Numbered from the stretch's first letter, positions 9,945 through 47,342 are shown. The stretch: 64,000 nt of DNA from a virus (IMGVR_UViG_3300020048_000018:114054-178053); one strand, 5' to 3'. Numbers and translations: made by a program. Notes: a model not told the origin generated them from the letters alone.

Positions 9945-9965
9945 GTTCTCTTCGTATGAAGGAAC
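9945..9965 (+). ncRNA. C(GUAU)G leader hairpin, copy 1
   Basis: GTTC-T-CTTC GTAT GAAG-GAAC. Confidence 0.5.
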
Positions 9966-9990
9966 ACATTTATTTTCTTGGAGTCTCATT

Positions 9991-10542
9991 ATGAAAAATG
10001 GACACAGCTACGATTCACCCTTTTCTTTCTTTGATGATGTAATGGATATTTTCAATTCATCAGTCGCAAGAACCCAACACACAGGTAACAATTCGTTCCC
10101 TCAACAAAGTCCAGATTGGGTTATCAAACAAGTATTTCCTATTGGAAATATTTTTGATACTGTAAGCAAGCTACCAAATTGTTTGGTTTCTTCTGCTTAC
10201 CCTCCCTCAAATGTTTTTATTGATAAGGATAAAAATTACCGAATTCAATGTGCTTGTGCAGGATATGATGAAAATTCGATTGGTCTTGATTTTGATAAAG
10301 ACCATTTGGTAATTACATTATTAGGGGATTCACCTTTTGAGGCTTCTGAAATAATGCTTCAATCTGGGGTAAAAAGTAAAACTAAGGATTACAAAGTAAA
10401 TTTCTTTATTGATACGAGAAATTTTGATGTAGAAAAACTAGAGTCTTCAATGGCTAATGGGCTTCTTGACATTAAGATTCCTGCGGTACCTACCAAGAAA
10501 TTCACCGTTGGTGTAGGAAAACCTCTCTCAAAAGCTGAGTAA
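9991..10542 (+). CDS. small heat-shock protein Hsp20
   Basis: YPPSNV, ACAGY, LESSMANGLLDIKIP alpha-crystallin motifs. Confidence 0.85.
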   Translation: MKNGHSYDSPFSFFDDVMDIFNSSVARTQHTGNNSFPQQSPDWVIKQVFPIGNIFDTVSKLPNCLVSSAYPPSNVFIDKDKNYRIQCACAGYDENSIGLDFDKDHLVITLLGDSPFEASEIMLQSGVKSKTKDYKVNFFIDTRNFDVEKLESSMANGLLDIKIPAVPTKKFTVGVGKPLSKAE

Positions 10543-10550
10543 TCAGGAAA

Positions 10551-10574
10551 GGGAACTACAGAAATGTGGTTCCC
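10551..10574 (+). terminator. GAAA-tetraloop hairpin after hsp20
   Basis: GGGAACTACA-GAAA-TGTGGTTCCC; weak U tract. Confidence 0.55.
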
Positions 10575-10646
10575 TATCATTTTAAAAGGTAACAACTAAT
10601 TACCTGAGCTTACCACAAAAAGCGAAAGCAGAGTAAAATCTGTAAT

Positions 10647-10669
10647 AGATTTCTCGTATGAGTAAATCT
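10647..10669 (+). ncRNA. C(GUAU)G leader hairpin, copy 2
   Basis: AGATTT-CTC GTAT GAG-T-AAATCT, downstream of ACTAATTA 10595-10602. Confidence 0.5.
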
Positions 10670-10716
10670 TAATGTGAGCAGAGATTAAGACCTAATCTCA
10701 AAAAGGAAAAAGAAAA

Positions 10717-11877
10717 ATGGTAGATTTTTCAAAATATGTAAAGATGTACGAGAGCTATAAAGATCGTAACGACTTAGGGACTGGCATTACTCGTTCTGAG
10801 ATTAAAGAACTTCGTGAGTCATATGCTACTGAGTCTAAGAAAGAACGTATCATGGAATCAAGACGTGGAACCGGTTATGCCAAGAGACTTGAGGAAAATG
10901 CTAAGGTAGATTCTGAACGCAAATCCCTTAAAGAAAAAGCTGATCTCAAAGATTCACGTATGGAAAGAATTAATGCTCTCCGTGAAGCTCGTGAGAACTC
11001 GGTTGTTGCTCCAGTAAAAGGTGTAGATAAAGTAGTTGCTACTCTTGATGAAAAGAAAGCCCAAGAAGCTCGTTCTGCAAGAATTCAATCAATCCGTGAA
11101 GCTCGTGTTGCAAAACCTGCAACCTCTTCTGTTGAAAAGAAACCTGTATCCAATGTAAATGAGAAAATCAATGAAGCTCGTTCTGCATACTTCAAAGCAA
11201 GAAAAGCTCTTCGTGAAGGTGACATGGGTATGGCAGGTGAACAAGCTGGAATCGCAACACAAGCTGTAGACGCTGTGAATGTAAACCAGACTGTAGTAAG
11301 CCCAGAAGTACTTGCAATTATCGAAGACCTTAAGAACAAAGTTGATAATCTTGCTACCACTGTAGGTATCGTACCTGCTGATACTGGCATGACCGCAGAA
11401 GCTGACCCGAACGCTGGAGTTCCTGCACAAGTAGGACAACCTCTTGACCAAGTTCAGGTTATGGAATCCGCTCAGTTGACTGCTGTAAAAGCAAGAATTG
11501 CTGAACGTAAAGCTATGATGGCTAAGACTTCTGCCGAAGTAGAAGCTCTTAATGAATCAGAAGCTGGACAAGCACAGATACTTGCAGTAATGAAAGCAAC
11601 AACCCCAAAGGATATGAGCTTGGCAACTGTTGACAAGAAAGAATCCGTTCTTCCTAAGATGCCCTCAGTAGCAGAAATCGTAAAAGGTACTGCAAAAGGT
11701 GTTGAAAGATGGCCCAACAAAGCAATTAAGAAAGACCCTTCTGCCGCTTTACTCGGAAAAGGTATCACGATTAATGAAGCTGAAAAACCATTAGACGAAC
11801 AAATGGTTGACAAAGTTCTGAATGAAGAAAAACTTAATTTCAGAGATATTTATAGAAATGGTGCTCTTACCAAATAA
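10717..11877 (+). CDS. probable prohead scaffold/core protein
   Basis: E/K/A/R-rich helical; more than 10 [LIVM]-x-E motifs (LRES, LREA, IREA, INEA, LNES, LNEE); MCP-like codon bias; strong terminator. Confidence 0.5.
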   Translation: MVDFSKYVKMYESYKDRNDLGTGITRSEIKELRESYATESKKERIMESRRGTGYAKRLEENAKVDSERKSLKEKADLKDSRMERINALREARENSVVAPVKGVDKVVATLDEKKAQEARSARIQSIREARVAKPATSSVEKKPVSNVNEKINEARSAYFKARKALREGDMGMAGEQAGIATQAVDAVNVNQTVVSPEVLAIIEDLKNKVDNLATTVGIVPADTGMTAEADPNAGVPAQVGQPLDQVQVMESAQLTAVKARIAERKAMMAKTSAEVEALNESEAGQAQILAVMKATTPKDMSLATVDKKESVLPKMPSVAEIVKGTAKGVERWPNKAIKKDPSAALLGKGITINEAEKPLDEQMVDKVLNEEKLNFRDIYRNGALTK

Positions 11878-11893
11878 GATGATGTAAAATTAT

Positions 11894-11924
11894 AGGGGTC
11901 TCTATTTTTGGAGACCCCTTTTTT
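11894..11924 (+). terminator. intrinsic terminator
   Basis: AGGGGTCTC/GAGACCCCT plus T tract. Confidence 0.85.
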
Positions 11925-11925
11925 A

Positions 11926-11934
11926 TGTTAATAT
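11926..11934 (+). promoter_or_regulatory. TGTTAATAT promoter (leaderless candidate)
   Basis: 7 nt before ATG 11942; no SD. Confidence 0.55.
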
Positions 11935-11941
11935 AATTGAT

Positions 11942-12691
11942 ATGAATATTAAAAATAAGTTTGGTTTTACTTCTTTCTCTATGGTAGATTCACCTAATGG
12001 TACAATTTCTTCTGTTATATATACACTAGGTTGTACAATGAGATGCAATTATTGTTACAATAATACTTTGGTTTTGCCAGAGCTTTTTTCCTCAAATGAC
12101 CCTCTATATTCAAAAGAAGAAATAAAGAGTTTAATACTTTCTAAAAGAACCTTAAACACTAAAAATAATACTTTTTTTAATAAATCAGATTATATTGTCC
12201 TTTCTGGTGGAGAACCTTTAATGCATTATGATGATGTAGTAGACTTCGCCATTTATGCAAAGTCTTTGGGATTTAAGGTTAAATTAAATACTAATTCATC
12301 TATTGATGTAACAAGACTTTTAGAAACAAAGTCGGTTGACTATGTTTCAATAGATTTTAAATTCCCCTTTCAGGATTACAATAATGAAAGTGTCCAACAA
12401 AATTTTAAGTATATACAACAGTCAAAAACTAAAAAACTTATTAATGAATTCGAAATTCATACTGTTATATTAAAAGGTTTTATTGATAAAGAAACCATTA
12501 TTAAAATGGCTGAGGAACTCAATACCTTAAGTATTTCTGCTTCTTGGTATCTGGTAGGTTACAAACATATGGACACGGTTCTTGATAAAACACTTTCCCC
12601 CAATAACCGATTTTTTGAGCCTGAAGCAAAAGAACTTTACCAAACTGCTCTTATGCATTATAATGGAAAAGTAATTCTTTCGGGATACTAA
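11942..12691 (+). CDS. radical SAM activase, anaerobic RNR-activating (NrdG-like)
   Basis: GCTMRCNYCYN, VLSGGEPL, KLNTN, YVSIDFK. Confidence 0.75.
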   Translation: MNIKNKFGFTSFSMVDSPNGTISSVIYTLGCTMRCNYCYNNTLVLPELFSSNDPLYSKEEIKSLILSKRTLNTKNNTFFNKSDYIVLSGGEPLMHYDDVVDFAIYAKSLGFKVKLNTNSSIDVTRLLETKSVDYVSIDFKFPFQDYNNESVQQNFKYIQQSKTKKLINEFEIHTVILKGFIDKETIIKMAEELNTLSISASWYLVGYKHMDTVLDKTLSPNNRFFEPEAKELYQTALMHYNGKVILSGY

Positions 12692-12710
12692 AACCCTTTG
12701 GAGGTTTATA

Positions 12711-13250
12711 ATGAGTAGATCACTTAAGAAAGTTGCTTCGGGCAATCGTCATGCAAGTGATAAATATACAAAACAAAAAGCCTCCCGAAAAGTAAGACGA
12801 AAAAATAATATCTGTTTAAATTCATTTGAATCCAGTAACGATGAAGACTTAATAGCCTTACGGGACTCTAAGGAACTTTGTTCTGTAGCATGGAGTGGAG
12901 AAAAAGAATCTTGCCATGGGGTATATACCGAGAAAGAATCTAGGAAATATATCTTAAAAGAAATTGAATATGCTAAGAGAGAAATCTCTATGGGCAGATG
13001 GGAAAAGATTCGTAAATATGTCCTTAATGTTGACGCAGAGGATTATTGGGATGGTCACTATTTACATTCTTGGAGACAATTACCTAAGAGACCTTGGGAC
13101 ACTATTAAAAAAAATATTTTCTATAATTGGAACAACAAACTCTTAGTAGTCTTAAAGATTAAAGTTCCAAGTGACCTCTGGAAAATAACTGATAAAGACA
13201 TAGAAAAAGCTGTTAAATTAACTCACAAATTTGAGTATTTAATGAAATAG
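12711..13250 (+). CDS. basic hypothetical protein
   Basis: SD GGAGG; K/R-rich N-terminus. Confidence 0.6.
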   Translation: MSRSLKKVASGNRHASDKYTKQKASRKVRRKNNICLNSFESSNDEDLIALRDSKELCSVAWSGEKESCHGVYTEKESRKYILKEIEYAKREISMGRWEKIRKYVLNVDAEDYWDGHYLHSWRQLPKRPWDTIKKNIFYNWNNKLLVVLKIKVPSDLWKITDKDIEKAVKLTHKFEYLMK

Positions 13251-13263
13251 TTTCAAGAGTTTA

Positions 13264-13272
13264 TGTTAATAT
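13264..13272 (+). promoter_or_regulatory. TGTTAATAT promoter
   Basis: Intergenic, upstream of dUTPase. Confidence 0.5.
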
Positions 13273-13302
13273 ATCCTTATCACGTTTAAGGATGTATTAA
13301 GT

Positions 13303-13926
13303 ATGAGTTCACTTGAGTTATTGAAAATTAGAAATGTAAAAAGTCCAAATAGGGGAACCTCTCATTCAGCAGGAATAGATTTTTATATGCCCGAGTTTGA
13401 TGAGGATTTCCTTATGGAAATGTTTATGAAAAATAAAAAAGTTTTTTATTTTATGGCATTAAACTCTTTATCAATCAAAGATTTTGAGACTTTTGTAGAA
13501 AGTGTTAGTTTGGATATAACTAAAGATGTTTTGATTGGAATAAAACTATTATGCAAACAAGATAATACTGAGTTTTATTTTGAGTTACCTGCTCTCAAGG
13601 ATTTCTTAATTCCTTCTGGAATTAAAACTAAGTTTCTCAATGGTGTCTTTATTGCCTTTAATAAAGGTGGAGTTGCCACAAAACAGAAGCTTACCGTTGG
13701 AGCCTGTGTTGATGATGAAGATTTTATGGGAGAACTCTTTATTCATGTCGTGAATAGCTCTGATGAACCTCAGAGAATTACCCTTGGAAATAAACTTGTA
13801 CAGTTCTTGTATATGCCAATAAACTATGATATTCCTGTAATCAAAGAAAATATTACCTCAGAGGAATTTTATGTAAAAGTAACAGACCGTGGAGAAGGTT
13901 GCTTAGGTTCCACCAGTATTAAATAG
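13303..13926 (+). CDS. dut: trimeric dUTPase with insertion
   Basis: SAGIDFY, IPSGIK, VDDEDFMGE, LVQFL, RGEGCLGST. Confidence 0.85.
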   Translation: MSSLELLKIRNVKSPNRGTSHSAGIDFYMPEFDEDFLMEMFMKNKKVFYFMALNSLSIKDFETFVESVSLDITKDVLIGIKLLCKQDNTEFYFELPALKDFLIPSGIKTKFLNGVFIAFNKGGVATKQKLTVGACVDDEDFMGELFIHVVNSSDEPQRITLGNKLVQFLYMPINYDIPVIKENITSEEFYVKVTDRGEGCLGSTSIK

Positions 13927-13933
13927 GTCTAAA

Positions 13934-13966
13934 ATTAAAGTCTGAGATTATTCCTCAGACTTTAAT
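13934..13966 (+). terminator. 13-bp hairpin terminator
   Basis: ATTAAAGTCTGAG/CTCAGACTTTAAT. Confidence 0.7.
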
Positions 13967-13971
13967 ATTTA

Positions 13972-14007
13972 AAAAGTTTTGAACTTTTCCAGAAATTTCT
14001 ATATATT
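13972..14007 (+). promoter_or_regulatory. sigma70-type early promoter with palindromic -35
   Basis: TTGAAC(13979)-N17-TATATT(14002); AAAAGTT-TTG-AACTTTT. Confidence 0.8.
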
Positions 14008-14081
14008 ATACAAGAAGATAATTTCGGATAATATCCTTTCCGTTAATAACTAAAGTCTTCTAAATTAAAGGATTTACTTTC

Positions 14082-14804
14082 ATGAATTTTACAAAAGTAC
14101 TGCTTTTAGCAGTAGGTTTATTTTTATTTTGTTCTACAATAACCTTAAATCTTATTATGTTTTCCAAAACAATTTCACCTATCAAACTAATAAGTGATTT
14201 AGGAGAACCTCAAAAAGCTTCCATGGAGGTATCCCCTTTTATTGGTCTAATTCCTGAGGTTGATGAGGTATATTCACCTTCCTTTGATGACATATACTTG
14301 TATATAAACTCAATTAGTAAAAAAAATCCTTCTAAGAATCAGCTCTCAAGAAAACAAATTTCGGATATAATACACTCTGTTGAGAAATATTGTGTTAAGT
14401 ATGGAATTAATAAACTAACTATTTTTTCAATGATTAAAGTAGAATCAAATTATATCCTCACTATCCCTTCTTGGAAGGGTTCTGAATATGGTAGAGGATT
14501 ACTTCAAGTAAGTAAAATAGCATTATTAGATTTTAATAACTGGACAGGTAATGAATACACCTCAGAAGATTTATATACTATAGAAAAAAATATTGAAGTA
14601 GGAATTTGGGCTTTTAATCAAAATTATCACTATGGTGTTGAAAATGGTTTTGAGGAAGGGGCTATAGTTGCCTATAATGTCGGGGTAGGTGATTATAAGA
14701 GACATAAAAAAGATTTATTATCAAATCAAATGTTTAAGGGTTTAACTTATGAATATTCAAGTAAAGTTCAGACTCAATATCAAATATTAATTTCATCCAA
14801 CTAA
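14082..14804 (+). CDS. membrane-anchored lytic transglycosylase (SLT domain)
   Basis: N-terminal TM; MIKVESNY catalytic Glu, GRGLLQV, NIEVG, AYNVG. Confidence 0.85.
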   Translation: MNFTKVLLLAVGLFLFCSTITLNLIMFSKTISPIKLISDLGEPQKASMEVSPFIGLIPEVDEVYSPSFDDIYLYINSISKKNPSKNQLSRKQISDIIHSVEKYCVKYGINKLTIFSMIKVESNYILTIPSWKGSEYGRGLLQVSKIALLDFNNWTGNEYTSEDLYTIEKNIEVGIWAFNQNYHYGVENGFEEGAIVAYNVGVGDYKRHKKDLLSNQMFKGLTYEYSSKVQTQYQILISSN

Positions 14805-14814
14805 GGGGTTACAA

Positions 14815-15135
14815 ATGGAAAACTTCACGAATCTTTGGTCTTATCAAAATGAACAGATAATAAAATTTCAGGGTTCAATAATTTCTCTCTCAAACTTTTC
14901 AGCTATACGTCCCATAATAATAAAAAATATGGGGTATGAGGTTCCTGCAATTAAGTTTTTTGGTAAGAAAGGTATAGAGTCTCAAGTATTTAGCTATGTT
15001 GACTTCCCTGATTTTACGGGATATTCCAAGGAAGCTTTGGACAAGTCGGTGGAAAAACTGATATCAGAAGCAAATACTCAATGTGATTCAGACATCGAAT
15101 GGCTTTGGGATAATTGCTTTAAGGGGGCTAAATGA
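14815..15135 (+). CDS. hypothetical protein
   Basis: SD AAGGGG; overlaps next gene by ATGA. Confidence 0.6.
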   Translation: MENFTNLWSYQNEQIIKFQGSIISLSNFSAIRPIIIKNMGYEVPAIKFFGKKGIESQVFSYVDFPDFTGYSKEALDKSVEKLISEANTQCDSDIEWLWDNCFKGAK

Positions 15136-16325
15136 ACTCAAAAGTAACACAAAAAGACTTAGAGGCTATCTTAGCAGGTCAATCACCTTTCTTGAAAAAT
15201 AAACCTCCTATTCCTCTTTCAGATGAAGAACTTCTGGCATTGGTAGATACAGATGAAAGTAGGGAGAAGACAAGGAATGCTAAAATTATAACCGAAGATT
15301 TTGTTCCTCCCCCACACAAGAGTACTACAGAGGTTCTCTCACAGGCTGAAGTTGATCAGCTTCTTGATGCCATCTCCTGTAGGGATGATGAATCAGATAA
15401 CCTCAGAAGTGAAAAAGAAAATAAGAAACTTCGTGTTAAAATTGTAGACTTTGGTAATTACTTGAGATACACTCAAAAAAATATGAGAAACTTATCCTCC
15501 CTTCATGACGATCTTGTTAGTCATGAAATGTATGCTTCCTTAAAAGAACTTTATGGTTTTGATAATAATTCTCATATGCACCTTGTCAGTGTTGATCAGA
15601 TGAGATTTTCAAACTTCCTTACCAGTCTTCCTTCCCCTTTCTTCATGGGAGTTGTTAAGTTTAATAAGTTTTCAAACCCTCTTATTATTGAAGCTGACTC
15701 AAATATAATCCTTCCCTTAATGAAAAAAGAAATCGTTAGTGTGATGTATCCTACTCTTTTTGAGAAAGATGAACAGAACTTTTTCTCAAAGGGGATTTTG
15801 TTAAGAGTAATAGACTCTCTTATTTCTCAAAATAATAAAGTGTTTAAGTCCCCACCTAAGAGTGTGGAGATTATTGATAATTTTTCCAGTTTTAATACAG
15901 ACCTTTTTAAGAAAACAGGGGTTTTACTTACCATTGAACTAGAAAGCCCTACTGACAAGGTAAGCGGTATGATAAATATCTGGTACTTTGAGGAATTTGT
16001 AAATGAGTTTATTAAAGCTTATGAGTCAAAAGAAATAAAAACTATTGGAGATACTGAAATGGAAATAACGTATAATAAACCTTTTGATGAGAAAGGGATT
16101 AAACTTGAAGTTCTTGCAGAACTTGGTAGATCCAAGCTAACTTTGGATGAACTTAGGGCTGTCGGAGAAGGGTCTATAATTAAACTAAATACTGTCATGG
16201 GAGAAGTAATAAAACTTACAATTGATGGAAAGCTCTTCGCTAAAGGTGAAGTTGTTGCAATAGGTGAAAATGAAAACTTTGGTATCAGAGTAATTGAATG
16301 TATTACTAACGGTGAAACTAACTAA
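15132..16325 (+). CDS. FliM-FliN-like flagellar motor switch chimera
   Basis: TEVLSQAEVDQLLDAIS; FliM-middle-like KIVDF..MRNLSSLHD..HLVSVDQMRFSNFLTSLPSP..IIEAD; FliN-like ELGRSKL..GEGSIIKL..FAKGEVVAIGENENFGIRV. Confidence 0.8.
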   Translation: MNSKVTQKDLEAILAGQSPFLKNKPPIPLSDEELLALVDTDESREKTRNAKIITEDFVPPPHKSTTEVLSQAEVDQLLDAISCRDDESDNLRSEKENKKLRVKIVDFGNYLRYTQKNMRNLSSLHDDLVSHEMYASLKELYGFDNNSHMHLVSVDQMRFSNFLTSLPSPFFMGVVKFNKFSNPLIIEADSNIILPLMKKEIVSVMYPTLFEKDEQNFFSKGILLRVIDSLISQNNKVFKSPPKSVEIIDNFSSFNTDLFKKTGVLLTIELESPTDKVSGMINIWYFEEFVNEFIKAYESKEIKTIGDTEMEITYNKPFDEKGIKLEVLAELGRSKLTLDELRAVGEGSIIKLNTVMGEVIKLTIDGKLFAKGEVVAIGENENFGIRVIECITNGETN

Positions 16326-16328: not shown

Positions 16329-16349
16329 TATAATTAGGCAGGTTTCAAG

Positions 16350-19440: not shown

Positions 19441-20193
19441 ATGGAAAAATTAAATGAAAGCAGGGAAAATGATCTATTCTTCGAGTTTTTAAACTTCGAT
19501 GAAAGGGATTATTATCATATGGGAGACTCCTATGGAGAAGGTAGAAGTCTTGATACTTTTTTGGAAGATGTAAAAGATTTTTCTTGTGATCTTTACATAG
19601 TAGGTTTTGACAGTGGAAGTTATGATTTTATTCTTGCAACCGAAAGTAATTCTGAAAGAAACCCTTCGTATACCGAGAGTAAGGTTCTTGAAGATTTTTC
19701 AGAAATGTTAAGCGAATCTGAAAGATATGGTTATCAGAATCACAATGAAGAAGATGGAGAGGAATATGAAGGTGTTTCCCTTGATGTAATTACCAAATTG
19801 GACATGGGACAGTTTGTTGAAATTACTTTTGGGGAGATTGACAACCGAACATTTGAAACCGTAAAAAAGGACGTTTGGAATCTTGCAAGCCTTGAAAACG
19901 CTCTTGAGGATTCTGGGTATTACCGAGAACATAATTTCAAGACAAGCACCAAGACTTTTGGGGTAATTGAATTTATTCAGTGGTGTGAAAAGCTTGATAA
20001 TAAGTTTACTGAGAAAAGTACTATTACTCATAATGTACTTGATGATTGCCTAGAGTTTACCTTATCGGATGATTACGAAACTAAGTTTTATTCTATCGGC
20101 GCACCAGCAGGACAGTATCTTAAGCAGAAAATGTTCGAGAGGATTTTCAACTTTATTACCAAAGAAATAGAGTATTCAAGAAACAATAACTAA
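19441..20193 (+). CDS. acidic hypothetical protein
   Basis: SD AAGGA; MEKLNES start. Confidence 0.55.
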   Translation: MEKLNESRENDLFFEFLNFDERDYYHMGDSYGEGRSLDTFLEDVKDFSCDLYIVGFDSGSYDFILATESNSERNPSYTESKVLEDFSEMLSESERYGYQNHNEEDGEEYEGVSLDVITKLDMGQFVEITFGEIDNRTFETVKKDVWNLASLENALEDSGYYREHNFKTSTKTFGVIEFIQWCEKLDNKFTEKSTITHNVLDDCLEFTLSDDYETKFYSIGAPAGQYLKQKMFERIFNFITKEIEYSRNNN

Positions 20194-40233: not shown

Positions 40234-41064
40234 GTGATTTTAGATAAATGTAAAAAAGAACATTTCTATGAATATGTAGATATCTGTGGAAAATTTGTGG
40301 ATATTGATAAAGATAATTCGTATGAATTATCCGAAGTAATGATTAAGCATTGTAAAAATAATAAAGAACAGAGATGTTTGGATTTTATTGAGCTTGAAAA
40401 TGTTTGGTATGAATCTTTCAAAACAGGAAATCCCGATTTTTCGGTATATGATAACCCTCTATTTGTAAGTGATCTTTGGGCATGTTGGGTTATGTATAGT
40501 AGAGATTATCTTAAAAGAATATCTTCCCCTAAGGGAATCTTAAACTCTCTTGAGGAAACTATAGTTTCTACAAGAAGTATTGTTGAAGATATGGGAGAGG
40601 TAAATGGGGTTGTAGACCTTGGTTGTGGTTTTGGTTATACTACTGCCGGTCTTAAGGAGATGTTTCCTAACTCGGATGTGTATGGTACAAATATCGAGAC
40701 ATCCTTTCAATATAAAATAGCTACATACTTTGGTAAAAAATATAACTTTTCAATCATACCTGATTGTTCTCATATAGGGAAAAAATTAGATGTTGTTTTT
40801 GCATCAGAATATTTTGAGCATATTGAAGATCCTATTAAACATCTTCTTGGGATATTAGATACTCTTAATCCAAAGTTTCTTATAATTGCAAATGCGTTTA
40901 ATGCTAGAGCATTAGGACACTTTGATAGATATCTTTTCAATGGAGAATATTTTGATGGTAAGACCATCAGTAGAATGTTTAATAAAACATTGCGAGATAA
41001 GGGATATAAAAAGGTACAAACCAACCTTTGGAATGATAGACCCTCCTATTGGAAAAAAGTTTAA
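40234..41064 (+). CDS. class I SAM-dependent methyltransferase
   Basis: VVDLGCGFG, YGTN, ASEYFEHI. Confidence 0.8.
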   Translation: MILDKCKKEHFYEYVDICGKFVDIDKDNSYELSEVMIKHCKNNKEQRCLDFIELENVWYESFKTGNPDFSVYDNPLFVSDLWACWVMYSRDYLKRISSPKGILNSLEETIVSTRSIVEDMGEVNGVVDLGCGFGYTTAGLKEMFPNSDVYGTNIETSFQYKIATYFGKKYNFSIIPDCSHIGKKLDVVFASEYFEHIEDPIKHLLGILDTLNPKFLIIANAFNARALGHFDRYLFNGEYFDGKTISRMFNKTLRDKGYKKVQTNLWNDRPSYWKKV

Positions 41065-41103
41065 AACTTAAAGTTAATATATTTAATAGATAAGGATTAA
41101 ATA

Positions 41104-41382
41104 ATGAAAGAAAATGATAAACCTAAGTTTAAGTGGGGTGTTGAAAAACCAGTTCAAACCAATGAACCTACTTGGAAGGATTCTTGGGGCGGTATGCCAG
41201 AGTTTGTTCAAGAACAACAAAAGCCTTATTCTCAGATAATGTTTAGATTTAATAGTGAAGAAGAACTTCAGGAGTTCGCTGTTTTGATAGGTCAACCTCT
41301 TACAAATAAAACAAAGTCTGCATGGTATCCCCAACTTGTTAGGGGGCTACATTCAGGTAAGAGGTATGTAGATGAATCCTAA
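41104..41382 (+). CDS. small partner of GREB1/TAGT-like glycosyltransferase
   Basis: WGGMPEFVQE..FRFNSEEELQEFA..IGQ..TKSAWYP; overlaps GT start. Confidence 0.6.
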   Translation: MKENDKPKFKWGVEKPVQTNEPTWKDSWGGMPEFVQEQQKPYSQIMFRFNSEEELQEFAVLIGQPLTNKTKSAWYPQLVRGLHSGKRYVDES

Positions 41383-42253
41383 GTATCCAATCTACATTGT
41401 TTCAAAAGGTAGATGGCTTACAAGACTCACCAGTAAATCCTTAGAAAGAATGGGTGTACCCTATCACATTGTGGTTGAATCTCAAGAGTTCGAGGAATAT
41501 TCCAAAGTAATTGACCCTAAGAAAATACTTATTCTCCCTAATGAATACCTAGAAAAGTATGATACCTGCGACTCGTTAGGTAGCTCCCTTAGTAAAGGAC
41601 CTGGTGCGGCACGTAATTTTTGTTTAGCACACTCAAGAAGTTTAGGTGCAAAGTATCATTGGGTTATGGATGACAACCTTGACGCATTTCATAGATTAAA
41701 CAACAATCTTAAAGTTGTATTAGAATGTGGTTCTGCTTTCCTTTGCATGGAAGACTTCGTTGAAAGATATACAAATGTTTTAATTGCAGGACCAAATTAT
41801 TATTCTTTTTGTAAAACTACTGACCCTGTTCCTCCTTACACAATAAATACCAGAATTTATTCGTGTCTTCTTATTAGGAACGACATTCCCTACGAGTGGA
41901 GAGGTAGATATAATGAGGACACTGATCTATGTTTAAGAGTTCTTAAAGATGGTTTTTGTACAATTCAATTTAATGCCTTTTTACAAGGAAAGGTAACTAC
42001 ACAAAGAATGTCTGGTGGAAACACTAAAGAGTTTTATAAAGAGGGTGGAACCTTGAATAAGTCTCAAATGATTGTTGATCTTCACCCTGATGTATCCTCT
42101 GTTGTCTATAGATTTAATCGTTGGCATCATCTTGTAGACTATAAGCCTTTCAAGAAAAATGTCTTGATACGCAATACGAATATACCGGTAGCTTCCCAAA
42201 TAAATAATTATGGAATGAAGCTTATTTCAACAAATAAAAGGGGCAAAGATTAA
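41372..42253 (+). CDS. GREB1-like / TET-associated GT-A glycosyltransferase
   Basis: YPIYIVSKGR, GPGAARN, WVMDDN, YNEDTD, GGNT, RWHH. Confidence 0.8.
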   Translation: MNPKYPIYIVSKGRWLTRLTSKSLERMGVPYHIVVESQEFEEYSKVIDPKKILILPNEYLEKYDTCDSLGSSLSKGPGAARNFCLAHSRSLGAKYHWVMDDNLDAFHRLNNNLKVVLECGSAFLCMEDFVERYTNVLIAGPNYYSFCKTTDPVPPYTINTRIYSCLLIRNDIPYEWRGRYNEDTDLCLRVLKDGFCTIQFNAFLQGKVTTQRMSGGNTKEFYKEGGTLNKSQMIVDLHPDVSSVVYRFNRWHHLVDYKPFKKNVLIRNTNIPVASQINNYGMKLISTNKRGKD

Positions 42254-42254
42254 T

Positions 42255-42500
42255 ATGAACATTCAATGTAATGGGGACTTAACTATTAATGGCGGTTCGG
42301 TGACAACTACCGGTCTAACTGTTATGTGCGATAGTAATCATGTATTTATTAATGGGGAAGAAATACCAATTCCCCGAGGAATGAAAACAAATAACATTTC
42401 AACGGTTAATAATAAAGTATTTATTGGTGGATTTGAGTTTTTTGAAAAGGACAAGAGGTTTAAAAGAACCCTCGAAGCTTTCATTCATTCCGTAACCTAA
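42255..42500 (+). CDS. hypothetical protein
   Basis: Beta-rich; operon packing. Confidence 0.5.
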   Translation: MNIQCNGDLTINGGSVTTTGLTVMCDSNHVFINGEEIPIPRGMKTNNISTVNNKVFIGGFEFFEKDKRFKRTLEAFIHSVT

Positions 42501-42779
42501 ATGATAGAATCTATTTTCCCAACAAAAGCTGAACTTTTTCCTATAGATACTGAAGTATCAAAAAAGGAACTTAAGAAAAAATATGTACTAAATTTCTCAT
42601 GTGGTTCATACAAAACTTACTGTCATGATTGTGGCTGTTTTGAATATGGGTGTGATATCACAGAAGAGTTTAATACTGATGTGTTATGTGAGGAATGTGT
42701 TTGCTCGGGTCTTGGCAACTTAGATCCACACACAGGTAAACGAATCTATAGGAGAAAAGAATGTGGAGAAAAGCACTAG
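42501..42779 (+). CDS. Cys-rich hypothetical protein
   Basis: CHDCGC..C..CEEC. Confidence 0.45.
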   Translation: MIESIFPTKAELFPIDTEVSKKELKKKYVLNFSCGSYKTYCHDCGCFEYGCDITEEFNTDVLCEECVCSGLGNLDPHTGKRIYRRKECGEKH

Positions 42780-43357
42780 TTGCAGTTATAAGTACCAGTT
42801 TGCTTATTTCATGTACAAACAAAAAAATTGTTGAGGTAATACCAGAAACCAAAACAATAATCATTTATGAAACTGTTTATGAAACTGTTTTCAAAGAAGT
42901 TATCATAGAAAAAATAAAGTATACAGATGAGTATTCTCTGCCTACCGATTTTTGTGAACCAATGAAGGATTATTTCATATCAAGTAAATTTGGATTTCGT
43001 CAAAGCCCGATGGGTGGAGTTGAAGGGGAATTTAATATGCACAAAGGTCTTGATTTAGTTGGTAAGAAAAACTCCCCTGTCTACGCAGTTAAAGAGGGTG
43101 TGGTAGCAATAAACTTTCCTCCCCCTAATGGTCATTATAAGGGTCATCCTATCTATGGTGGATTAATTATTATTGATCATGGAAAAGGTCTTTATACTTT
43201 ATATGCACACCTAAGTAAGGGATTTGTTACCGAAAAACAGGTTGTTAAAAAAGGTCAACAAATTGGTGTTCAGGGAAATACCGGACAATCTACAGGACCC
43301 CATTTGCATTTTGAGATATTAGTTGACCCCAAGTACGCATTAAGTTATACTAATTAA
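42761..43357 (+). CDS. M23 family peptidase lipoprotein
   Basis: LLIS-C lipobox; HKGLD, YAHL, GQSTGPHLHFE. Confidence 0.9.
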   Translation: MWRKALVAVISTSLLISCTNKKIVEVIPETKTIIIYETVYETVFKEVIIEKIKYTDEYSLPTDFCEPMKDYFISSKFGFRQSPMGGVEGEFNMHKGLDLVGKKNSPVYAVKEGVVAINFPPPNGHYKGHPIYGGLIIIDHGKGLYTLYAHLSKGFVTEKQVVKKGQQIGVQGNTGQSTGPHLHFEILVDPKYALSYTN

Positions 43358-43375
43358 GCTAAGGAAACTTTATTT

Positions 43376-43720
43376 ATGAAAAGATTAATTCTAGTACTGT
43401 TTGTTTCGCTGTTAGCTGTATCAAGTTCTTTCTCACATAAAAAAATACTCGATGAAGAATCAGTAGAGTATTATGATGAGACTCCCGAATCAGGTGAGCA
43501 TCTTAGACTTATATATAATAGTGTTTCAAGAAACCTAACCGTAGTTTATACTTTGTCAGATGACTTTTATTTTGAGGGTGACGCATTTGTCTTAATTCGA
43601 GATAGAATTATTAAGTTTAAACTTGATAAAGGTTTTAAATATTATAAAACTATTAGTGAAGATATTATTAAATGGCATAATGATCAGGTAGAATATACAA
43701 GGTTTTTAATTTTATATTAA
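43376..43720 (+). CDS. secreted hypothetical protein
   Basis: Sec-type signal peptide. Confidence 0.55.
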   Translation: MKRLILVLFVSLLAVSSSFSHKKILDEESVEYYDETPESGEHLRLIYNSVSRNLTVVYTLSDDFYFEGDAFVLIRDRIIKFKLDKGFKYYKTISEDIIKWHNDQVEYTRFLILY

Positions 43721-43722
43721 TT

Positions 43723-43914
43723 ATGAAAAAATTAATTATAAACCCTGAAGAAATTGATATACGGGAAAGTATCTTCCTTAATGGAGGGTACTGTATATCC
43801 TCTAAGATTAAAAATTCTACAACAAAATGTATGTGCGATTATGCAAAGAAATATCATGTTTGTAAGTGCGGTTTATTCTTAACAATCGAGGTTCCTGATG
43901 AACAACCTAAATAG
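43723..43914 (+). CDS. ferredoxin-thioredoxin reductase catalytic-chain-like
   Basis: NGGYC..TKCMC..CKCGLF. Confidence 0.5.
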   Translation: MKKLIINPEEIDIRESIFLNGGYCISSKIKNSTTKCMCDYAKKYHVCKCGLFLTIEVPDEQPK

Positions 43915-44188
43915 TATCGGGAAATTTTCCCTTCAGTTTTATTTTGAGGATGAAATATTCCAGATAACTGATTCCTCAACCAACAGAATATTCAGAGAAG
44001 AAGCTTTAATGCTTTCTGCTAATTATGCGGTTTACTTTGACCTTAAATCTCAAGATGATACTTTATATACCTTAAAATCAAACTTTAAAGATTCAATATT
44101 ATCCTACTTGTTAAACTTCTATGAAATAAACTCTGATAAATTTAGATATTGGAAATCTAGAATAAAGGAAGAACCGTTTTTATGTTAA
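43898..44188 (+). CDS. hypothetical protein
   Basis: SD GAGG. Confidence 0.45.
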   Translation: MNNLNSIGKFSLQFYFEDEIFQITDSSTNRIFREEALMLSANYAVYFDLKSQDDTLYTLKSNFKDSILSYLLNFYEINSDKFRYWKSRIKEEPFLC

Positions 44189-44198
44189 GGAGAAAATT

Positions 44199-44639
44199 TT
44201 GAAAATATTTTTAGGAGGGACATGCCCCTCATTTGATGGAGATTTTGACTATAGAAAAATACTTATTCCAATCTTAAATGAATTGGACATTGAATATTTT
44301 AACCCTGTTGTAGAAGATTGGACAGAAGAATGTATAAAAATTGAAGAAGATGAAAAGGAATTATGTGATATCCATTTATATCTTATAGCTCCAAATATGA
44401 AAGGGGTATATTCAGTAGCTGAAGCTTTCGGTTCATTAATGATTTATGATGAAGAAAAAATGTCAATTCTTCTGGTATTAAAATCTATTTCAGATAAAAC
44501 TTTTGAAAAATCTCAGTTGAAAAGTCTCTATGCTACTTTAGACTTGTTCGAGAGTTGTGGAGGAAGTTCTTGGAATGCCGAGGATATCAATTCCTTAAAT
44601 GAAGACTTCTTACTAGAAATTCTAGAGGGTTATTATTGA
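44199..44639 (+). CDS. nucleoside 2-deoxyribosyltransferase-like
   Basis: KIFLGGTC, YFNPVVEDW, GVYSVAE; TTG start with AAGGAG. Confidence 0.7.
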   Translation: MKIFLGGTCPSFDGDFDYRKILIPILNELDIEYFNPVVEDWTEECIKIEEDEKELCDIHLYLIAPNMKGVYSVAEAFGSLMIYDEEKMSILLVLKSISDKTFEKSQLKSLYATLDLFESCGGSSWNAEDINSLNEDFLLEILEGYY

Positions 44640-44654
44640 AAACTAAATAAAGGT

Positions 44655-44679
44655 AAAGCACTCTATTGAGTGCTTTTTT
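44655..44679 (+). terminator. intrinsic terminator
   Basis: AAAGCACTC-TATT-GAGTGCTTT plus T tract. Confidence 0.85.
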
Positions 44680-44716
44680 GTTTTTAACCCTTTGTAATTC
44701 TCTCAACTAACTTTTT

Positions 44717-45094
44717 ATGAGCAACATTGAGTACGCAATTAAAGATACCGTCTGGGTTCTGTCAGCATTGGAAACACACTATTATAAGTTACCTATAGAA
44801 GCAGTTCTCTTAGGTATTAGCAAAACAGATAAAATTAATAAGTTTAAGGTTAAAGCTAACGGTCAAACCTTTTATGTTAAGCAGTTGTTTGATAAAGACT
44901 CTTGCATCGATACCTCATTGCTTGCTTTGAAAACTGCATTAAATGTCTTAAATGTTCTCAGATCAATGTATGGAAACTTAAAAGGTAAAGAAATTCTTAG
45001 AGTCTTAGATACCATTGATACCGAATCAAAAATAATTAAATCCCATATCTTAAAAATTGAAGGCAATGATTTCATTTGGAGTGATATCGGTTAA
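44717..45094 (+). CDS. hypothetical protein
   Basis: ACTAAC 6 nt upstream; no SD. Confidence 0.45.
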   Translation: MSNIEYAIKDTVWVLSALETHYYKLPIEAVLLGISKTDKINKFKVKANGQTFYVKQLFDKDSCIDTSLLALKTALNVLNVLRSMYGNLKGKEILRVLDTIDTESKIIKSHILKIEGNDFIWSDIG

Positions 45095-46167
45095 ATTCTG
45101 GATAAAAGTTTTTCTAAAAGTTTCTCAATATCTTCATCATATTTTATTCTTATCAACTCTAAATTATTGTCTATACAATATTTAGTTTTTATTGTGTCAT
45201 TAATCTGTCTTTTCTTGAAACCCTCAATTCCTCCAAACCATTTAACGGGAACATAATGCTGTTTTCCATCATATTCAATTAAGTGAGATAGCTTTCCATT
45301 TTCAAATATAGCAAAATCAAACGGAAGGGGTCTCTTGTTTTTGCAGTCTTTAATCTTGTACTGTTCTACAAAAGTAAGATTAGTTTTTTGCAGAATATTT
45401 CTAATCCCTTTTTCACCATGAGAGGATTGGCATCTCGGACAACCTGCCCCTGCTAAATGATGACTAGCTCTTTGGGAAAATCTCCCATGTTCTATGCAAA
45501 TAATATCTATTTCAACCTTAGAGTTCACATAGTCAACTAAGGAATAATCATATTTATCTCCATGAACTTTCTTAGCACCAAATATGTAATCTTCTGTATT
45601 TGATTTCTTGTTACCAAAACATTGAGGACACCCTTTTCCATTTAGGTGACTATTAGCCACTTGTGAAAAAACCCCATGCATTGAACAAATAATATCTATT
45701 TTGGATTCCTTCCCTACATAAGTAACAAGAGAATAGTCATAGGTATTTCCATGAACCTCTTTAGCTTTTTCAATGAATTCCACAGTTGTAGATTTCTTGT
45801 TTCTTGAACATACCGGACACCCTTTTCCCATTAAATGACTTGATGCATTTTGAAAAAACTTCCCATGATTAGGACAGATAATCTCAATCTTTAAACTTGA
45901 ATTAATATAATTCACTATCGAATAATCATACTTATTTCCATGAACATCTTTAGCTTTTTCTATATACTCCTCAGTGGTTATCTTTTGGTTTCCAGAACAT
46001 TTTGGACATCCTTGTCCCAATAAGTGCTTATTAACCATTTGAAAGAACTTCCCATGTTCTTTACATACAATCTCAACTTTAACCTTAGAGTTCACATAGC
46101 ATACCTTTGAGTAATCATATTTATCACCATGAACTTTCTTAGCTTTTTCTAGAAAAATGTTTTTCAT
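45091..46167 (-). mobile_element. homing endonuclease-like: 4 x 63-aa Zn-finger repeats plus DUF559/Vsr-like nuclease
   Basis: (HGxKYDY..IICxxHG.F.Q..H..G.GCPxC)x4; SHGE..PFDF..IEYDGKQHY. Confidence 0.8.
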
Positions 46168-46176
46168 ATCTTAGTA

Positions 46177-46185
46177 ATATTAACA
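46177..46185 (-). promoter_or_regulatory. TGTTAATAT promoter
   Basis: 9 nt before ATG 46167. Confidence 0.5.
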
Positions 46186-46189
46186 AAAA

Positions 46190-47182
46190 TCATTTTATTT
46201 TTATCTTAAAACTTTTTAGGTAGCTTTTACCATAAACTTTTTCAATGTATTTAAGAATTGGAAATAAATCATTATACTTTAATAATTTTACTTTATTTTC
46301 TTGTATAAAATTATATTTTTCCTTCCACCAGCTCTTTGTAATTGCACAGTATGGCTCACCTTCTTTATTAAAAAACTGATTTCCTTTAATTTCTTGATAC
46401 TCACCCTCTACCAGAAAATCAGGATGATACTTATGAGATATTCCATCAGAACCAAGATATGTGAAATCAGTAATTGGCTGATATGTGAAGTTTTGTTTAT
46501 TATCTGTTAGCCAAATATAATAGGCAAGTTCCCAAGAACTGTCAAAACAGACCTCATTATACACATAAGTTCTACTATATATCATTCTTCCATATTTTTT
46601 TATTATTATTTCATTTGCTTCTCTCCTCCATTCCTTTGACTTGAAGTTATGATCTACCCCATAGTGTTTCATATAAGTTCCCTTTGAGTTTTCCATTCTA
46701 ATTTTATATGATGCTTCTACTGTTCCATATCTTTTCAATAAAGTTTCATGAGACTTTTCTTTAGACTCTTCTGTTTGAGCAGGGTTCGTAACACCATATT
46801 TAATAATACACGATTTTTGAGTGTTTATGTTTCTCTCTGTCCAGTCTCTTTCTGAACTCATCCTTTTAACTTTTTCTAATTGCCAAGTGTTTTCTATCCC
46901 ATATTTTTCTAAATTTGTTTTTGACCTCTTCTCAGTAATAAGCTTAGTATCTTCTTTTGTGTATTTTCCTTTTTCATATGAGATTGAACATCCCTTGCAT
47001 AATAACTTATCTTTCTTCAATTTTCTTCTGATAGACCATATCTTAAGGGATAGTGATTTTCCGCAAATCTCACAAATACCTTGAATATCGTCTAAAGAAC
47101 CTGAGTTCCTAAATTCTTTTAATTCTTTCACATTCCTAATTTCTATCATATTTCCATGCCTTAAATAAGTTAGTTTATTCAC
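46190..47182 (-). mobile_element. homing endonuclease-like: KYG repeats plus TnsA-like PD-(D/E)xK nuclease (alt start 47149)
   Basis: CEICG..CKGC; EKYGIEN, IKYGVTN, KHYGVDH; FDSSWE..YHPDF..EIKG. Confidence 0.75.
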
Positions 47183-47211
47183 TTAAAAAGCAGGAAAGTT
47201 TGATTAAGAAA

Positions 47212-47316
47212 TTTAAGAAAAAAGTCTTTCTAAAGTACTCATACTAATTAAAGGATTAGTTATTACTACTTTAAAATTTTAAGAAAAAGTCTTTTTAAAG
47301 TACTCATACTAATTAA
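47212..47316 (+). repeat. ~40-bp direct repeat x2, each ending in ACTAATTAA (tandem late promoters)
   Basis: TTTAAGAAAAA(A)GTCTTT[C/T]TAAAGTACTCATACTAATTAA at 47212-47251 and 47278-47316. Confidence 0.8.
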
Positions 47317-47320
47317 TGTA

Positions 47321-47342
47321 TATAGCTTCGTATGAAGTTATA
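47321..47342 (+). ncRNA. C(GUAU)G leader hairpin, copy 3
   Basis: TATAGCTTC GTAT GAAGTTATA, 9 bp with one G.U. Confidence 0.55.

Follow-up and report, generated by a model that had tools for sequence, protein, structure and literature searches.

A conserved bulged GUAU hairpin in the hsp20 leader of T4-like jumbo phages, with properties of a putative RNA operator

Hairpins that bind a protein through a loop combined with a bulge include the coat-protein translational operators of MS2 and PP7 and the iron-responsive element. The 5′ UTR of E. coli ompA carries a 5′-terminal stem-loop that acts as a stabiliser, and stabilisers need no particular loop. To our knowledge GUAU falls in no known stable tetraloop class, and a literature search found no paper on a GUAU tetraloop. 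T4 mRNAs carry C(UUCG)G hairpins, whose UUCG loop is hyperstable by itself, is bound by no protein and works whatever its context (PMC4371310). In ROSE elements the Shine-Dalgarno sequence (SD) lies in the 3′-proximal hairpin, imperfectly paired with U(U/C)GCU, as in Pseudomonas ibpA (PMC3669281). The T4 late promoter is TATAAAT(A) (PMC3037559). The GUAU hairpin found here before hsp20 is a conserved, uncatalogued RNA motif of a T4-like jumbo-phage family.

The source phage is a large uncultured T4-like member of this family, with a 178-kb genome (G000) that is 69% complete; the window, i.e., the whole stretch analysed, spans 64,000 nucleotides. The initial annotation had noticed three hairpins with a C-GTAT-G loop before probable Hsp20, scaffold and major capsid genes. 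All three are present at the positions it gave, and the pattern exceeds chance. The GUAU hairpins of the window are:

9945–9965, + strand: hsp20-leader hairpin; two 4-bp stems separated by a 1-nt 5′ bulge (T), GUAU loop closed by C-G
10647–10669, + strand: leader of the scaffold-like gene (386 aa); GUAU hairpin with a 3′ bulge between 3 bp and 6 bp
40311–40330, + strand: fourth GUAU hairpin, GATAATTC-GTAT-GAATTATC; perfect 8-bp stem, z −4.4
47321–47342, + strand: capsid-gene leader; GUAU hairpin with an unbulged 9-bp stem that includes one G.U pair

The hsp20 hairpin reads GTTC[T]CTTC-GTAT-GAAGGAAC (−7.8 kcal/mol, z −2.6), the scaffold-like one AGATTTCTC-GTAT-GAG[T]AAATCT (−6.4 kcal/mol, z −3.0), and the capsid one TATAGCTTC-GTAT-GAAGTTATA (−8.4 kcal/mol, z −4.6); the whole-leader MFE folds contain all three. 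Their stems had been described as different and compensating, which is true of the distal stem only: CTTC/GAAG is common to the hsp20 and capsid sites, and TC..GA to all. TCGTATGA has 6 copies in the window against 1.0 expected, a number reached in 0 of 100 shuffles. A genome-wide search, also proposed in the initial annotation, showed that 5 of the 28 CGTATG copies of the 178-kb genome form a hairpin, every one on the + strand, and that the energies of the 28 copies are clearly bimodal. Of the closing-pair hexamers on the + strand, CGTATG is the one most associated with hairpins: 4 of its 21 copies are at least as stable as −6 kcal/mol (binomial p 3.4e-6; ~0.005 once corrected for 1452 hexamers). 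The three GUAU hairpins are real and beyond chance. Two further copies had been missed: that at 40311–40330, which has no 5′ bulge and forms codons 26–33 of a methyltransferase-like ORF (40234–41064), and, beyond the window, a weaker one at 56288–56315 of the genome, again within an ORF. A leader-operator model does not account for these two.

The surroundings of the first two hairpins comprise the following features:

9787–9794, + strand: ACTAATTA, promoter-like motif, distal copy in the hsp20 leader
9843–9850, + strand: ACTAATTA, proximal copy in the hsp20 leader, 94 nt 5′ of the hairpin
9991–10542, + strand: hsp20 gene, alpha-crystallin family, 183 aa (PF00011 in Pfam, phrog_432)
10550–10575, + strand: intrinsic terminator 3′ of hsp20; 11-bp stem, −17.7 kcal/mol, T-run
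10595–10602, + strand: ACTAATTA of the scaffold-like gene, promoter-like, 44 nt 5′ of the hairpin
10717–11877, + strand: putative scaffold-like gene, 386 aa; low-complexity, helical, K/E/A-rich

The Hsp20 assignment of the initial annotation is correct, given the PF00011 and phrog_432 matches. The hairpin ends 12 nt 5′ of the SD (GGAG) and 25 nt 5′ of the ATG; it folds independently, with both SD and AUG outside it and not paired to it. The terminator at 10550–10575 divides the hsp20 and scaffold-like transcription units.

An identical 4+1+4 architecture is found in the hsp20 leaders of seven lineages (G000, G001, G017/G022, G018, G013, G021 and L245, the last found independently by a DNA pattern scan), whose Hsp20 proteins share 23–35% identity. 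In the common motif a C-G pair closes a GUAU tetraloop that never varies; the 4 bp of the upper stem pair 5′ pyrimidines with 3′ purines, a single G or U bulges out on the 5′ side, and four further pairs make up the lower stem. Most lineages have its end 12–17 nt 5′ of the hsp20 SD, and in most it follows the promoter motif by 28–94 nt; the distance to the SD varies, and G001 and G018 have a second hairpin in between. Its stability ranges from −7 to −14 kcal/mol, and among the CGTATG hairpins of each relative's genome it ranks first or second. In an alignment of eight sequences, a small sample, 98.4% of cells are paired versus 45–53% in slid controls, a paired fraction matched by 0 of 500 shuffles; double changes occur in 6 of 8 pairs and compensatory changes in 22 cells. 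RNAalifold, left unguided, arrives at the same structure. One position has three U.G pairs, and these, together with the G.U pair of the capsid site, are compatible with the sense strand only. Covariance model R1, for which 9945–9965 is a training sequence, scores this site at 34.6 bits. Because seven divergent lineages keep the architecture while the stem sequences change, the hsp20 hairpin is best regarded as a cis-acting RNA element and a real control element; the initial proposal of such an element thus holds here, with loop, closing pair, bulge position and pairing kept and stem sequences varying.

The motif was seen in none of ~72 other phage hsp20 loci examined. Five or six related lineages place different hairpins, with GUU, UUUAU or 10-nt loops, at the hsp20 slot, and GUAU is therefore not obligatory. 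In G013 the 4+1+4 architecture recurs, with GUAC as its loop, 12 nt 5′ of the SD of an 82-aa ORF. Membership of the hyperstable UNCG/GNRA class was rejected on the loop sequence, which is GUAU (GUAC in this one paralogue), although C-G closes it. No Rfam family matches the hsp20 hairpin in the scan that had been suggested; all families of Rfam 15, run on the three leaders, gave sub-threshold chance matches only (Moco, snoZ118).

We read the motif as a sense-strand RNA stem-loop of the hsp20 leader that borders the ribosome-binding region on its 5′ side. Since loop, closing pair and bulge position are fixed while both stems covary freely, we infer a factor that reads the hairpin sequence-specifically, most likely a phage or host RNA-binding protein. 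Our best reading, held with about as much doubt as belief, is that the hairpin is a putative operator read by such a trans-acting factor, which may set translation or lifetime of the hsp20 mRNA. The hsp20 copy combines an invariant loop and bulge position with a covarying stem, as do operators of the MS2/PP7 type; it does not overlap the SD or start codon, ending 12–17 nt before the SD. A search for RegA (phrog_242) gave no match, and its control likewise matched nowhere.

The transcripts that would carry these hairpins probably start at ACTAATTA, which behaves like a late promoter judging from its sequence and placement; starts at this motif would imply read-through of the hairpins. As in T4-type late promoters, the element is short, AT-rich and close upstream of many genes: ACTAATT occurs upstream of 24 genes (8.4-fold enriched), mostly 15–35 nt from the ATG, and ACTAATTA is kept before the capsid genes of relatives. 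All three hairpins lie downstream of it, as initially described, with motifs at 9787 and 9843, at 10595, and at 47243 and 47308. Their leaders are unusually long, with 114–217 nt from ACTAATTA to ATG versus 15–35 nt for most ACTAATTA genes. Weak sigma70-like sites adjoin the first two hairpins and could start transcripts there. Searches for gp55 (T4 gp55, phrog_234 and phrog_12791 in G000, G001, G003, G005 and G008) gave no match, nor did the control match anywhere, and G000 is an incomplete genome.

The capsid region, where the third hairpin lies, contains the following:

47243–47250, + strand: ACTAATTA of the capsid gene, copy 1 of a ~65 bp duplicated promoter segment
47308–47315, + strand: ACTAATTA of the capsid gene, copy 2, directly 5′ of the GUAU hairpin; conserved in L130
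47382–47398, + strand: capsid-leader hairpin TCGG-ATAAAAATG-CCGA; conserved in relatives
47404–47420, + strand: capsid-leader hairpin TAGGT-GATAAAT-ACCTA; stem kept in L130
47468–49153, + strand: major capsid protein gene, T4 gp23 type, 561 aa; ~50%-identity relatives carry PF07068

The capsid label of the initial annotation is correct by way of those relatives; a direct Pfam scan of the 561-aa protein found no match, and BLASTP against T4 gp23 was weak (E 0.019). Tandem ACTAATTA motifs also precede the capsid gene of G001. The GUAU hairpin begins 5 nt 3′ of the second motif and is scored by R1 at 16.6 bits (E 0.12). No GUAU hairpin occurs in 27 other distinct capsid-gene leaders of relatives (45–85% capsid identity). 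The closest relative compared, L130 (85% over the first 159 capsid residues), retains the promoter, and a hairpin stands in the equivalent position, but its stem differs and its loop is ATTTAA; hairpins with varied, unrelated loops fill this promoter-proximal slot in 11 of 21 capsid leaders. Because so many relatives fill the slot with unrelated hairpins, the capsid copy is probably mainly a 5′-end stabiliser. The conserved element of the capsid leader is the 47382–47398 hairpin, not the GUAU copy: its L130 counterpart, TTGG-ATAAAAATG-CCAA, is a compensatory change, G001 has GGG-ATTAAAAATG-CCC, and the class occurs in 11 of 28 capsid leaders versus 2 of 28 coding controls. The additional stems pointed out initially do exist, both here (TCGG/CCGA and TAGGT/ACCTA) and before the scaffold-like gene (GCAGA/TCTGT, 10628–10643; GAGATTA/TAATCTC, 10682–10699).

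The scaffold-like copy sits in a multi-hairpin leader (leader z −3.56) and has a 3′ bulge in place of the 5′ bulge; R1, an hsp20-type model, did not report it, and the motif is absent from the orthologous leader in G001. The name "scaffold" agrees with the composition of the 386-aa protein, helical and K/E/A-rich, and with nothing further: the protein has no Pfam or PHROG match and no sequence or profile similarity to T4 gp22, its predicted structure model is of low confidence, and its G001 orthologue is 27% identical.

These comparisons bear on the suggestion that one motif coordinates capsid, scaffold and chaperone output. Conservation across related phages holds for the hsp20 leaders and fails for the capsid and scaffold-like ones. 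The capsid and scaffold-like look-alikes are found only in G000 and are not conserved, being absent in relatives even at 85% capsid identity, and like the 40311 copy they lack the 5′ bulge. Coordination across the three genes is not supported as suggested, and their co-regulation across 37 kb is putative and at most specific to G000. More weakly, the top of the hairpin (TC-GUAU-GA) may have been copied into the two other leaders in G000, and the copies might put the capsid and scaffold-like genes under the same putative factor. That a putative dedicated RNA-binding protein of the family has its operator here, and that this operator spread in G000 from hsp20 to the capsid and scaffold-like mRNAs, we consider doubtful; if true, the spread would make a small post-transcriptional regulon in which chaperone supply is matched to the synthesis of head proteins.

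It is possible, although rather unlikely, that the hairpins are passive structures without a specific ligand, serving as 5′ stabilisers, ompA-type barriers to 5′-end-dependent decay or folding nucleation sites. The capsid leaders speak for this explanation, in that the GUAU copy lies 5 nt from the promoter-like motif in a slot occupied by unrelated stable hairpins in 11 of 21 capsid leaders of the family. In L245 a perfect TTGACA-17-TATAAT promoter predicts a start ~7 nt from the hsp20 hairpin, and every hairpin precedes a presumably abundant late protein. The distance from ACTAATTA, 5 nt at the capsid site, is 94 nt at the hsp20 site and 44 nt at the scaffold-like site. However, the hsp20 hairpin lies 28–94 nt from the promoter motif in most lineages. 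Moreover, a passive structure has no need for an invariant loop, closing pair, bulge position and pyrimidine:purine upper stem at such Hsp20 divergence.

An RNA thermometer of hsp20, ROSE-like or other, is improbable. The hairpin does belong to the 5′ UTR of a gene for a small heat-shock protein (PF00011), its bulged G facing a purine-rich strand recalls ROSE, and a weak CUCU/AGAG mini-hairpin touches the SD in L245, G002 and the G013 82-aa ORF copy. ROSE membership was nevertheless rejected, as the SD lies 12–17 nt downstream, the U(U/C)GCU anti-SD motif is absent (PMC3669281), and Rfam ROSE, ROSE_2 and ROSE_3 have no match in the window at gathering score, in 9480–10730 (E up to 5) or in nine related hsp20 loci (E up to 1). 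The SD/AUG region is not more structured than shuffles (z −1.9 to +0.9), and stability that differs by lineage between −7 and −14 kcal/mol is unlike a tuned melting element.

We give similarly little credence to a transcription-level signal, either a leaky attenuator or a nut/boxB-like loading site for an antitermination factor. A conserved small hairpin 3′ of a promoter is reminiscent of lambda boxB, and a moderately U-rich stretch follows in several lineages (AUUUUCU in G000, G013 and the G013 82-aa ORF copy). However, the U-rich run begins 1–4 nt past a weak AT-rich stem, and no terminator lies between hairpin and gene. Intrinsic termination, which calls for a G+C-rich stem with a T-run 0–2 nt behind it, was rejected for all three hairpins, none of which is flagged by a terminator scan that does flag 10550–10575.

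An element that acts as DNA is very improbable, be it an inverted repeat bound by a protein, a promoter or origin formed by an extruded hairpin, or a scar left by recombination or a mobile element. The 12-mer CTTCGTATGAAG is present three times in the phage genome, a hint of copying, homing endonucleases are numerous there, and one G001 copy is antisense within an endonuclease-like ORF; yet the stems covary rather than staying the same, the opposite strand would have A.C mismatches in place of the G.U pairs, the G000 copies are all on the transcribed strand, and similarity stops at the hairpin edges. Least probable of all, the conserved AUG (loop A and U plus closing G) might start a regulatory upstream mini-ORF translationally coupled to hsp20, as its 12 codons and a TGA overlapping the hsp20 ATG in G000 would allow, but length (3–15 codons), frame and stop position are not conserved, no SD precedes it, and the G013 82-aa ORF copy has ACG.

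The putative operator can finally be set beside known systems. ACTAATTA, like the T4 late promoter, is an AT-rich 8-mer on the coding strand, 15–35 nt before many start codons and family-wide before capsid genes, whereas its sequence differs. The ompA stabiliser resembles the capsid copy, next to a promoter-like motif in a slot often hairpin-filled in relatives, but not the hsp20 hairpin, which as a rule stands tens of nucleotides away from that motif and has an invariant loop. With ROSE, the hsp20 hairpin shares a structured 5′ leader of an hsp20/ibpA gene and an unpaired G opposite a purine-rich strand; unlike ROSE, it leaves the SD outside and has neither U(U/C)GCU nor an Rfam match. The C(UUCG)G hairpins of T4 are likewise recurrent C-G-closed tetraloops in non-coding stretches of a T4-type phage, although the GUAU hairpin is bulged and tied to one orthologous leader. 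With MS2, PP7 and the iron-responsive element it has in common an invariant loop, a single 5′ bulge a fixed number of pairs below the loop, a covarying stem and a position adjoining the translation start region. It differs from them in lying in a DNA-phage mRNA, in its GUAU loop, in a bulged G or U rather than A or C, in standing 12–17 nt upstream of an SD that it leaves uncovered together with the AUG, and in having no sequence relation to them.

Each of the three hairpins with a GUAU loop lies exactly where the initial annotation placed it, in the leaders of hsp20, a 386-aa gene and the capsid gene, and persists in the minimum-free-energy fold of its whole leader (fold z-scores of −2.6, −3.0 and −4.6, respectively). 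The genome-wide search for CGTATG gives 28 copies that split cleanly into five forming hairpins, all on the plus strand, and 23 that do not fold. Among closing-pair hexamers it shows the strongest link to stable tetraloop hairpins (4 of 21; p = 3.4e-6, or about 0.005 once corrected), and TCGTATGA occurs six times in the window for 1.0 expected. Two of the folding copies had been overlooked; they lie within reading frames and both encode Ser-Tyr-Glu (TCG TAT GAA) in the identical frame.

Features discussed in the text (window numbering unless stated otherwise)
9945-9965, plus strand: GUAU hairpin, hsp20 leader
9991-10542: ORF, Hsp20 gene
10550-10575: strong terminator separating hsp20 from the following unit
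10647-10669, plus strand: GUAU hairpin, leader of the 386-aa gene
10717-11877: ORF, 386-aa gene, low-complexity helical protein
19525-19609: tRNA-Pro (UGG) gene
40311-40330, plus strand: perfect 8-bp GUAU hairpin within a methyltransferase-like ORF
47321-47342, plus strand: GUAU hairpin, capsid-gene leader
47404-47420: capsid-leader hairpin
47468-49153: ORF, 561 aa, capsid gene
Genome position 56288-56315, plus strand: weaker GUAU hairpin within a 150-aa ORF

These elements belong to G000, an uncultured T4-like jumbo phage from an aquatic habitat; its 178,053-bp IMG/VR record, of which the window spans bases 114054–178053, has 34% G+C, an estimated completeness of 69% and 226 of its 277 crude ORFs on the plus strand. 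The 561-aa ORF has hundreds of relatives, many from contigs of 260–440 kb. Pfam PF07068, the T4 gp23 capsid family, is present in relatives about 50% identical to it; the ORF itself is weak in a direct Pfam scan and in BLASTP against T4 gp23. Other genes encode a topoisomerase II, a thymidine kinase, a GroEL-type chaperonin and many homing endonucleases, and Hsp20 is thought to serve head assembly in T4-like phages (PMC3037559). The 386-aa protein had been called a scaffold. This label must be regarded as a mere guess from composition, since the family search matched none and comparison with T4 gp22 revealed no similarity; relatives sought among viral contigs were not found, and its neighbours in a protein-atlas look-up were uninformative. 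GenBank phages searched with the leaders, the capsid gene and the 386-aa gene gave neither a DNA nor a protein match.

Evidence that the GUAU hairpin is conserved comes from the hsp20 leader. Relatives were gathered through the capsid protein and their Hsp20 genes were then located; an alignment of 11 Hsp20 sequences proved too divergent for scanning. CGTATG is present in the hsp20 leaders of the relatives' genomes G001, G017/G022, G018, G013 and G021, all of which fold as does the window at 9945-9965, and an independent lineage, L245, emerged from a pattern scan of IMG/VR DNA (GTTC[G]CTTC-GTAT-GAAGGAAC, 16 nt before the Shine-Dalgarno sequence (SD) of an Hsp20 homologue). The hairpin-bearing lineages share only 23–35% identity in Hsp20 and about 44–50% in the capsid protein. 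Their common structure has a lower and an upper stem of 4 bp each, separated on the 5′ side by a single bulged base, which is G in six copies and U in two, and is capped by a GUAU loop closed by C-G, the sole invariant pair. Of the cells in the 8-sequence alignment, 98.4% are paired, versus 45–53% with slid partners; both sides change in six of the eight pairs (22 cells), and none of 500 shuffles reached the observed covariation. Unguided RNAalifold returns the same structure. Pyrimidines always predominate on the 5′ side of the upper stem and purines on its 3′ side, and U·G pairs are confined to the sense orientation. The comparison across related phages called for by the initial annotation hence bears it out for this leader: the loop, its closing pair and the place of the bulge persist while the stems covary, a pattern that shows selection on a predicted sense-strand RNA hairpin with these fixed features. 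In G000, G017, G013, G021 and L245, GGAG begins 12–17 nt after the hairpin end; a second hairpin intervenes in G001 and G018. Other hairpins occupy the corresponding place in G002, G003, G005/G025 and G008, and the complete genomes G003, G005, G008 and G012 lack the motif.

A covariance model of the hsp20-type hairpin (R1) had no match among about 72 further hsp20 loci of phages, and the hairpin matches no Rfam family. R1 yields one further copy with the 4+1+4 architecture, in G013 (L120:1501-1530, minus strand; G013:63302-63331); its loop is GUAC, and it precedes the SD of an 82-aa ORF by 12 nt. This ORF begins MAYNAKVTHK..., and its homologue is absent from G000, G001, G018, G021 and G022. 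Matches in G005, G023, G025 and at G013 63582 were rejected as ordinary GC-rich terminators, and further CGTATG hairpins of G018 and G013 were set aside as lying within ORFs or antisense. Besides L245 and the G017/G022 loci L218 and L257, pattern-scan matches fell mostly inside long ORFs; that in L244 is terminator-like. A perfect 9-bp GUAU hairpin (CTCCCCTTC-GTAT-GAAGGGGAG) at L215:2687-2760, on a contig from the same sample as G003, stands 12 nt ahead of the SD of an ORF, 60 aa or longer, with an extremely acidic product, and may be another leader copy. In G001, a 12-bp GUAU hairpin (ATATTCTATTT[T]C-GTAT-GAAATAGAATAT; L119, G001:94502-94531, minus strand; R1 E 9e-4) lies antisense within an ORF resembling an endonuclease, some 1 kb ahead of the 386-aa gene's orthologue. 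Downstream of hsp20, in L017:3720-5464 and beyond, G001 continues with a 365-aa endonuclease-like ORF and a DnaK-like gene (KILGVDLGTGNS...).

The initial annotation had proposed a motif coordinating capsid, scaffold and chaperone output across 37 kb. Its hsp20 arm is conserved in relatives, but the GUAU hairpin was found in 0 of 27 other distinct capsid leaders, and in G001 the 386-aa gene's orthologue keeps the promoter motif but lacks the hairpin. R1 gives the capsid copy just 16.6 bits and leaves the 386-aa copy and that at 40311 unreported. YTCGTATGAR is not enriched across 27 relatives' genomes (21 matches versus 44 for the reversed control), and most of its matches there do not fold. 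CTTCGTATGAAG occurs three times in the G000 genome, and this shared 10–12-nt hairpin top suggests copying or convergent recruitment within G000. The hsp20 and 386-aa copies are without variants in metagenome DNA contigs (three runs of one aquatic study). The repeat-rich divergent promoter region in the tk/hsp20 interval does vary in metagenome contigs: at 9539-9751 a variant form has a joint going back 213 nt, 28 inserted letters, and small indels and SNPs.

Capsid leaders follow a different pattern. Among the close capsid relatives, which include P0004–P0008 at 79–85% identity, the leader comparison covered L130, a 1200-bp contig that is 85% identical over the first 159 capsid residues and keeps the promoter segment; its hairpin begins a few nucleotides after that segment but reads GATCAC-ATTTAA-GTGATC. 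The promoter-proximal capsid hairpin of G001 is also different. A significantly stable hairpin (z below −1.5) starts 1–8 nt after ACTAA[AT]T[ACT] in 11 of 21 capsid leaders (loci L023, L037, L038, L042, L125, L126, L129, L130 and window 47321-47342), with unrelated loops and sequences, which suggests a conserved 5′-terminal stem-loop on capsid mRNAs. The capsid-leader element actually conserved is TCGG-ATAAAAATG-CCGA at 47382-47398, with counterparts in L130 (TTGG..CCAA, 600-660; a compensatory change) and G001 (GGG-ATTAAAAATG-CCC, L009 about 2870-2890). Hairpins with GC stems and AU-rich loops ending in AUG occur in 11 of 28 capsid leaders versus 2 of 28 coding controls, and this class may represent a second leader motif with a wider distribution. 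In L045 and L047 the capsid match does not begin until residue 88–118, and the highly structured sequence ahead of it (GTTCAACGACTAT..CCGAAAGG..) may be an intron interrupting the gene.

The promoter-like motif ACTAATTA is not enriched in raw count; its placement relative to genes is. ACTAATT is 8.4-fold over-represented within 80 nt upstream of ORFs and precedes 24 genes, most ACTAATTA copies have a start codon 15–35 nt downstream on the coding strand, and k-mer analysis identifies both ACTAATTA and TGTTAAT as gene-upstream motifs. ACTAATTA thus behaves like the T4-type late promoter, likewise a short distance before many genes, whose T4 sequence is TATAAAT (PMC3037559). Long leaders, with 114–217 nt from motif to ATG, set the hsp20, 386-aa and capsid genes apart, and most relatives have ACTAA[AT]T[AT] 136–260 nt upstream of the capsid gene. 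Searches for homologues of gp55 and RegA gave no match; their controls matched nowhere either. The capsid-gene upstream region (47205-47315) contains a tandem duplication of a segment of about 65 bp bearing the motif (..AAGTCTTT.TAAAGTACTCATACTAATTAA), and G001 likewise has two ACTAATTA copies before its capsid gene. The hsp20 leader carries a further promoter-like motif, TGTTAATCT, at 9803-9811. Weak sigma70-like sites at 9905-9933 (TTGATT-17-TATTAA) and 10610-10639 (TTACCA-18-TAAAAT) would begin transcripts 1–5 nt ahead of the first two hairpins, and L245 has a perfect TTGACA-17-TATAAT about 7 nt ahead of its hsp20 hairpin.

Based on these comparisons, we propose, at about even chances, that the hsp20 hairpin is an operator: placed at the 5′ edge of the ribosome-binding region and read by a putative protein, it would tune hsp20 translation or mRNA lifetime. 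The main rival is a ligand-free stabiliser, and the capsid copy probably acts primarily as one. We consider this rival unlikely for hsp20, and favour the operator because a loop and bulge that stay constant while the stems covary are the signature of a protein-read hairpin. A ROSE-type thermometer is rejected, since the SD lies outside the hairpin and no U(U/C)GCU motif occurs, and is further disfavoured by a two-fold difference in hairpin stability across lineages; structure over the SD/AUG, where a thermometer hairpin was sought, is not above shuffles. The AUG formed by loop and closing G starts mini-ORFs of 3–15 codons (12 in G000, 9956-9994, with a TGA overlapping the hsp20 ATG as ATGA), and a regulatory role for them is rejected because they are unconserved in relatives. 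A terminator scan rejected the terminator reading.

Post-transcriptional control in large DNA phages has been documented in a handful of T4 cases (RegA, gp32, gp43), and to our knowledge it is almost wholly undescribed in uncultured aquatic jumbo T4-like phages. The present motif is well defined, strongly covarying and tied to a single gene, hsp20, and its compact 21 nt permit direct testing by reporter, pull-down and structure work, which could yield a new phage RNA-binding regulator. The G000 capsid and 386-aa leader copies offer a natural experiment on operator spread. We found neither a GUAU tetraloop nor this hsp20 leader hairpin described in the literature. Hairpins read by proteins, such as the MS2 and PP7 operators, the IRE and boxB, classically keep loop and bulge constant while their stems covary, and it is these that the predicted hsp20 hairpin, with its fixed loop and bulge, appears to resemble.
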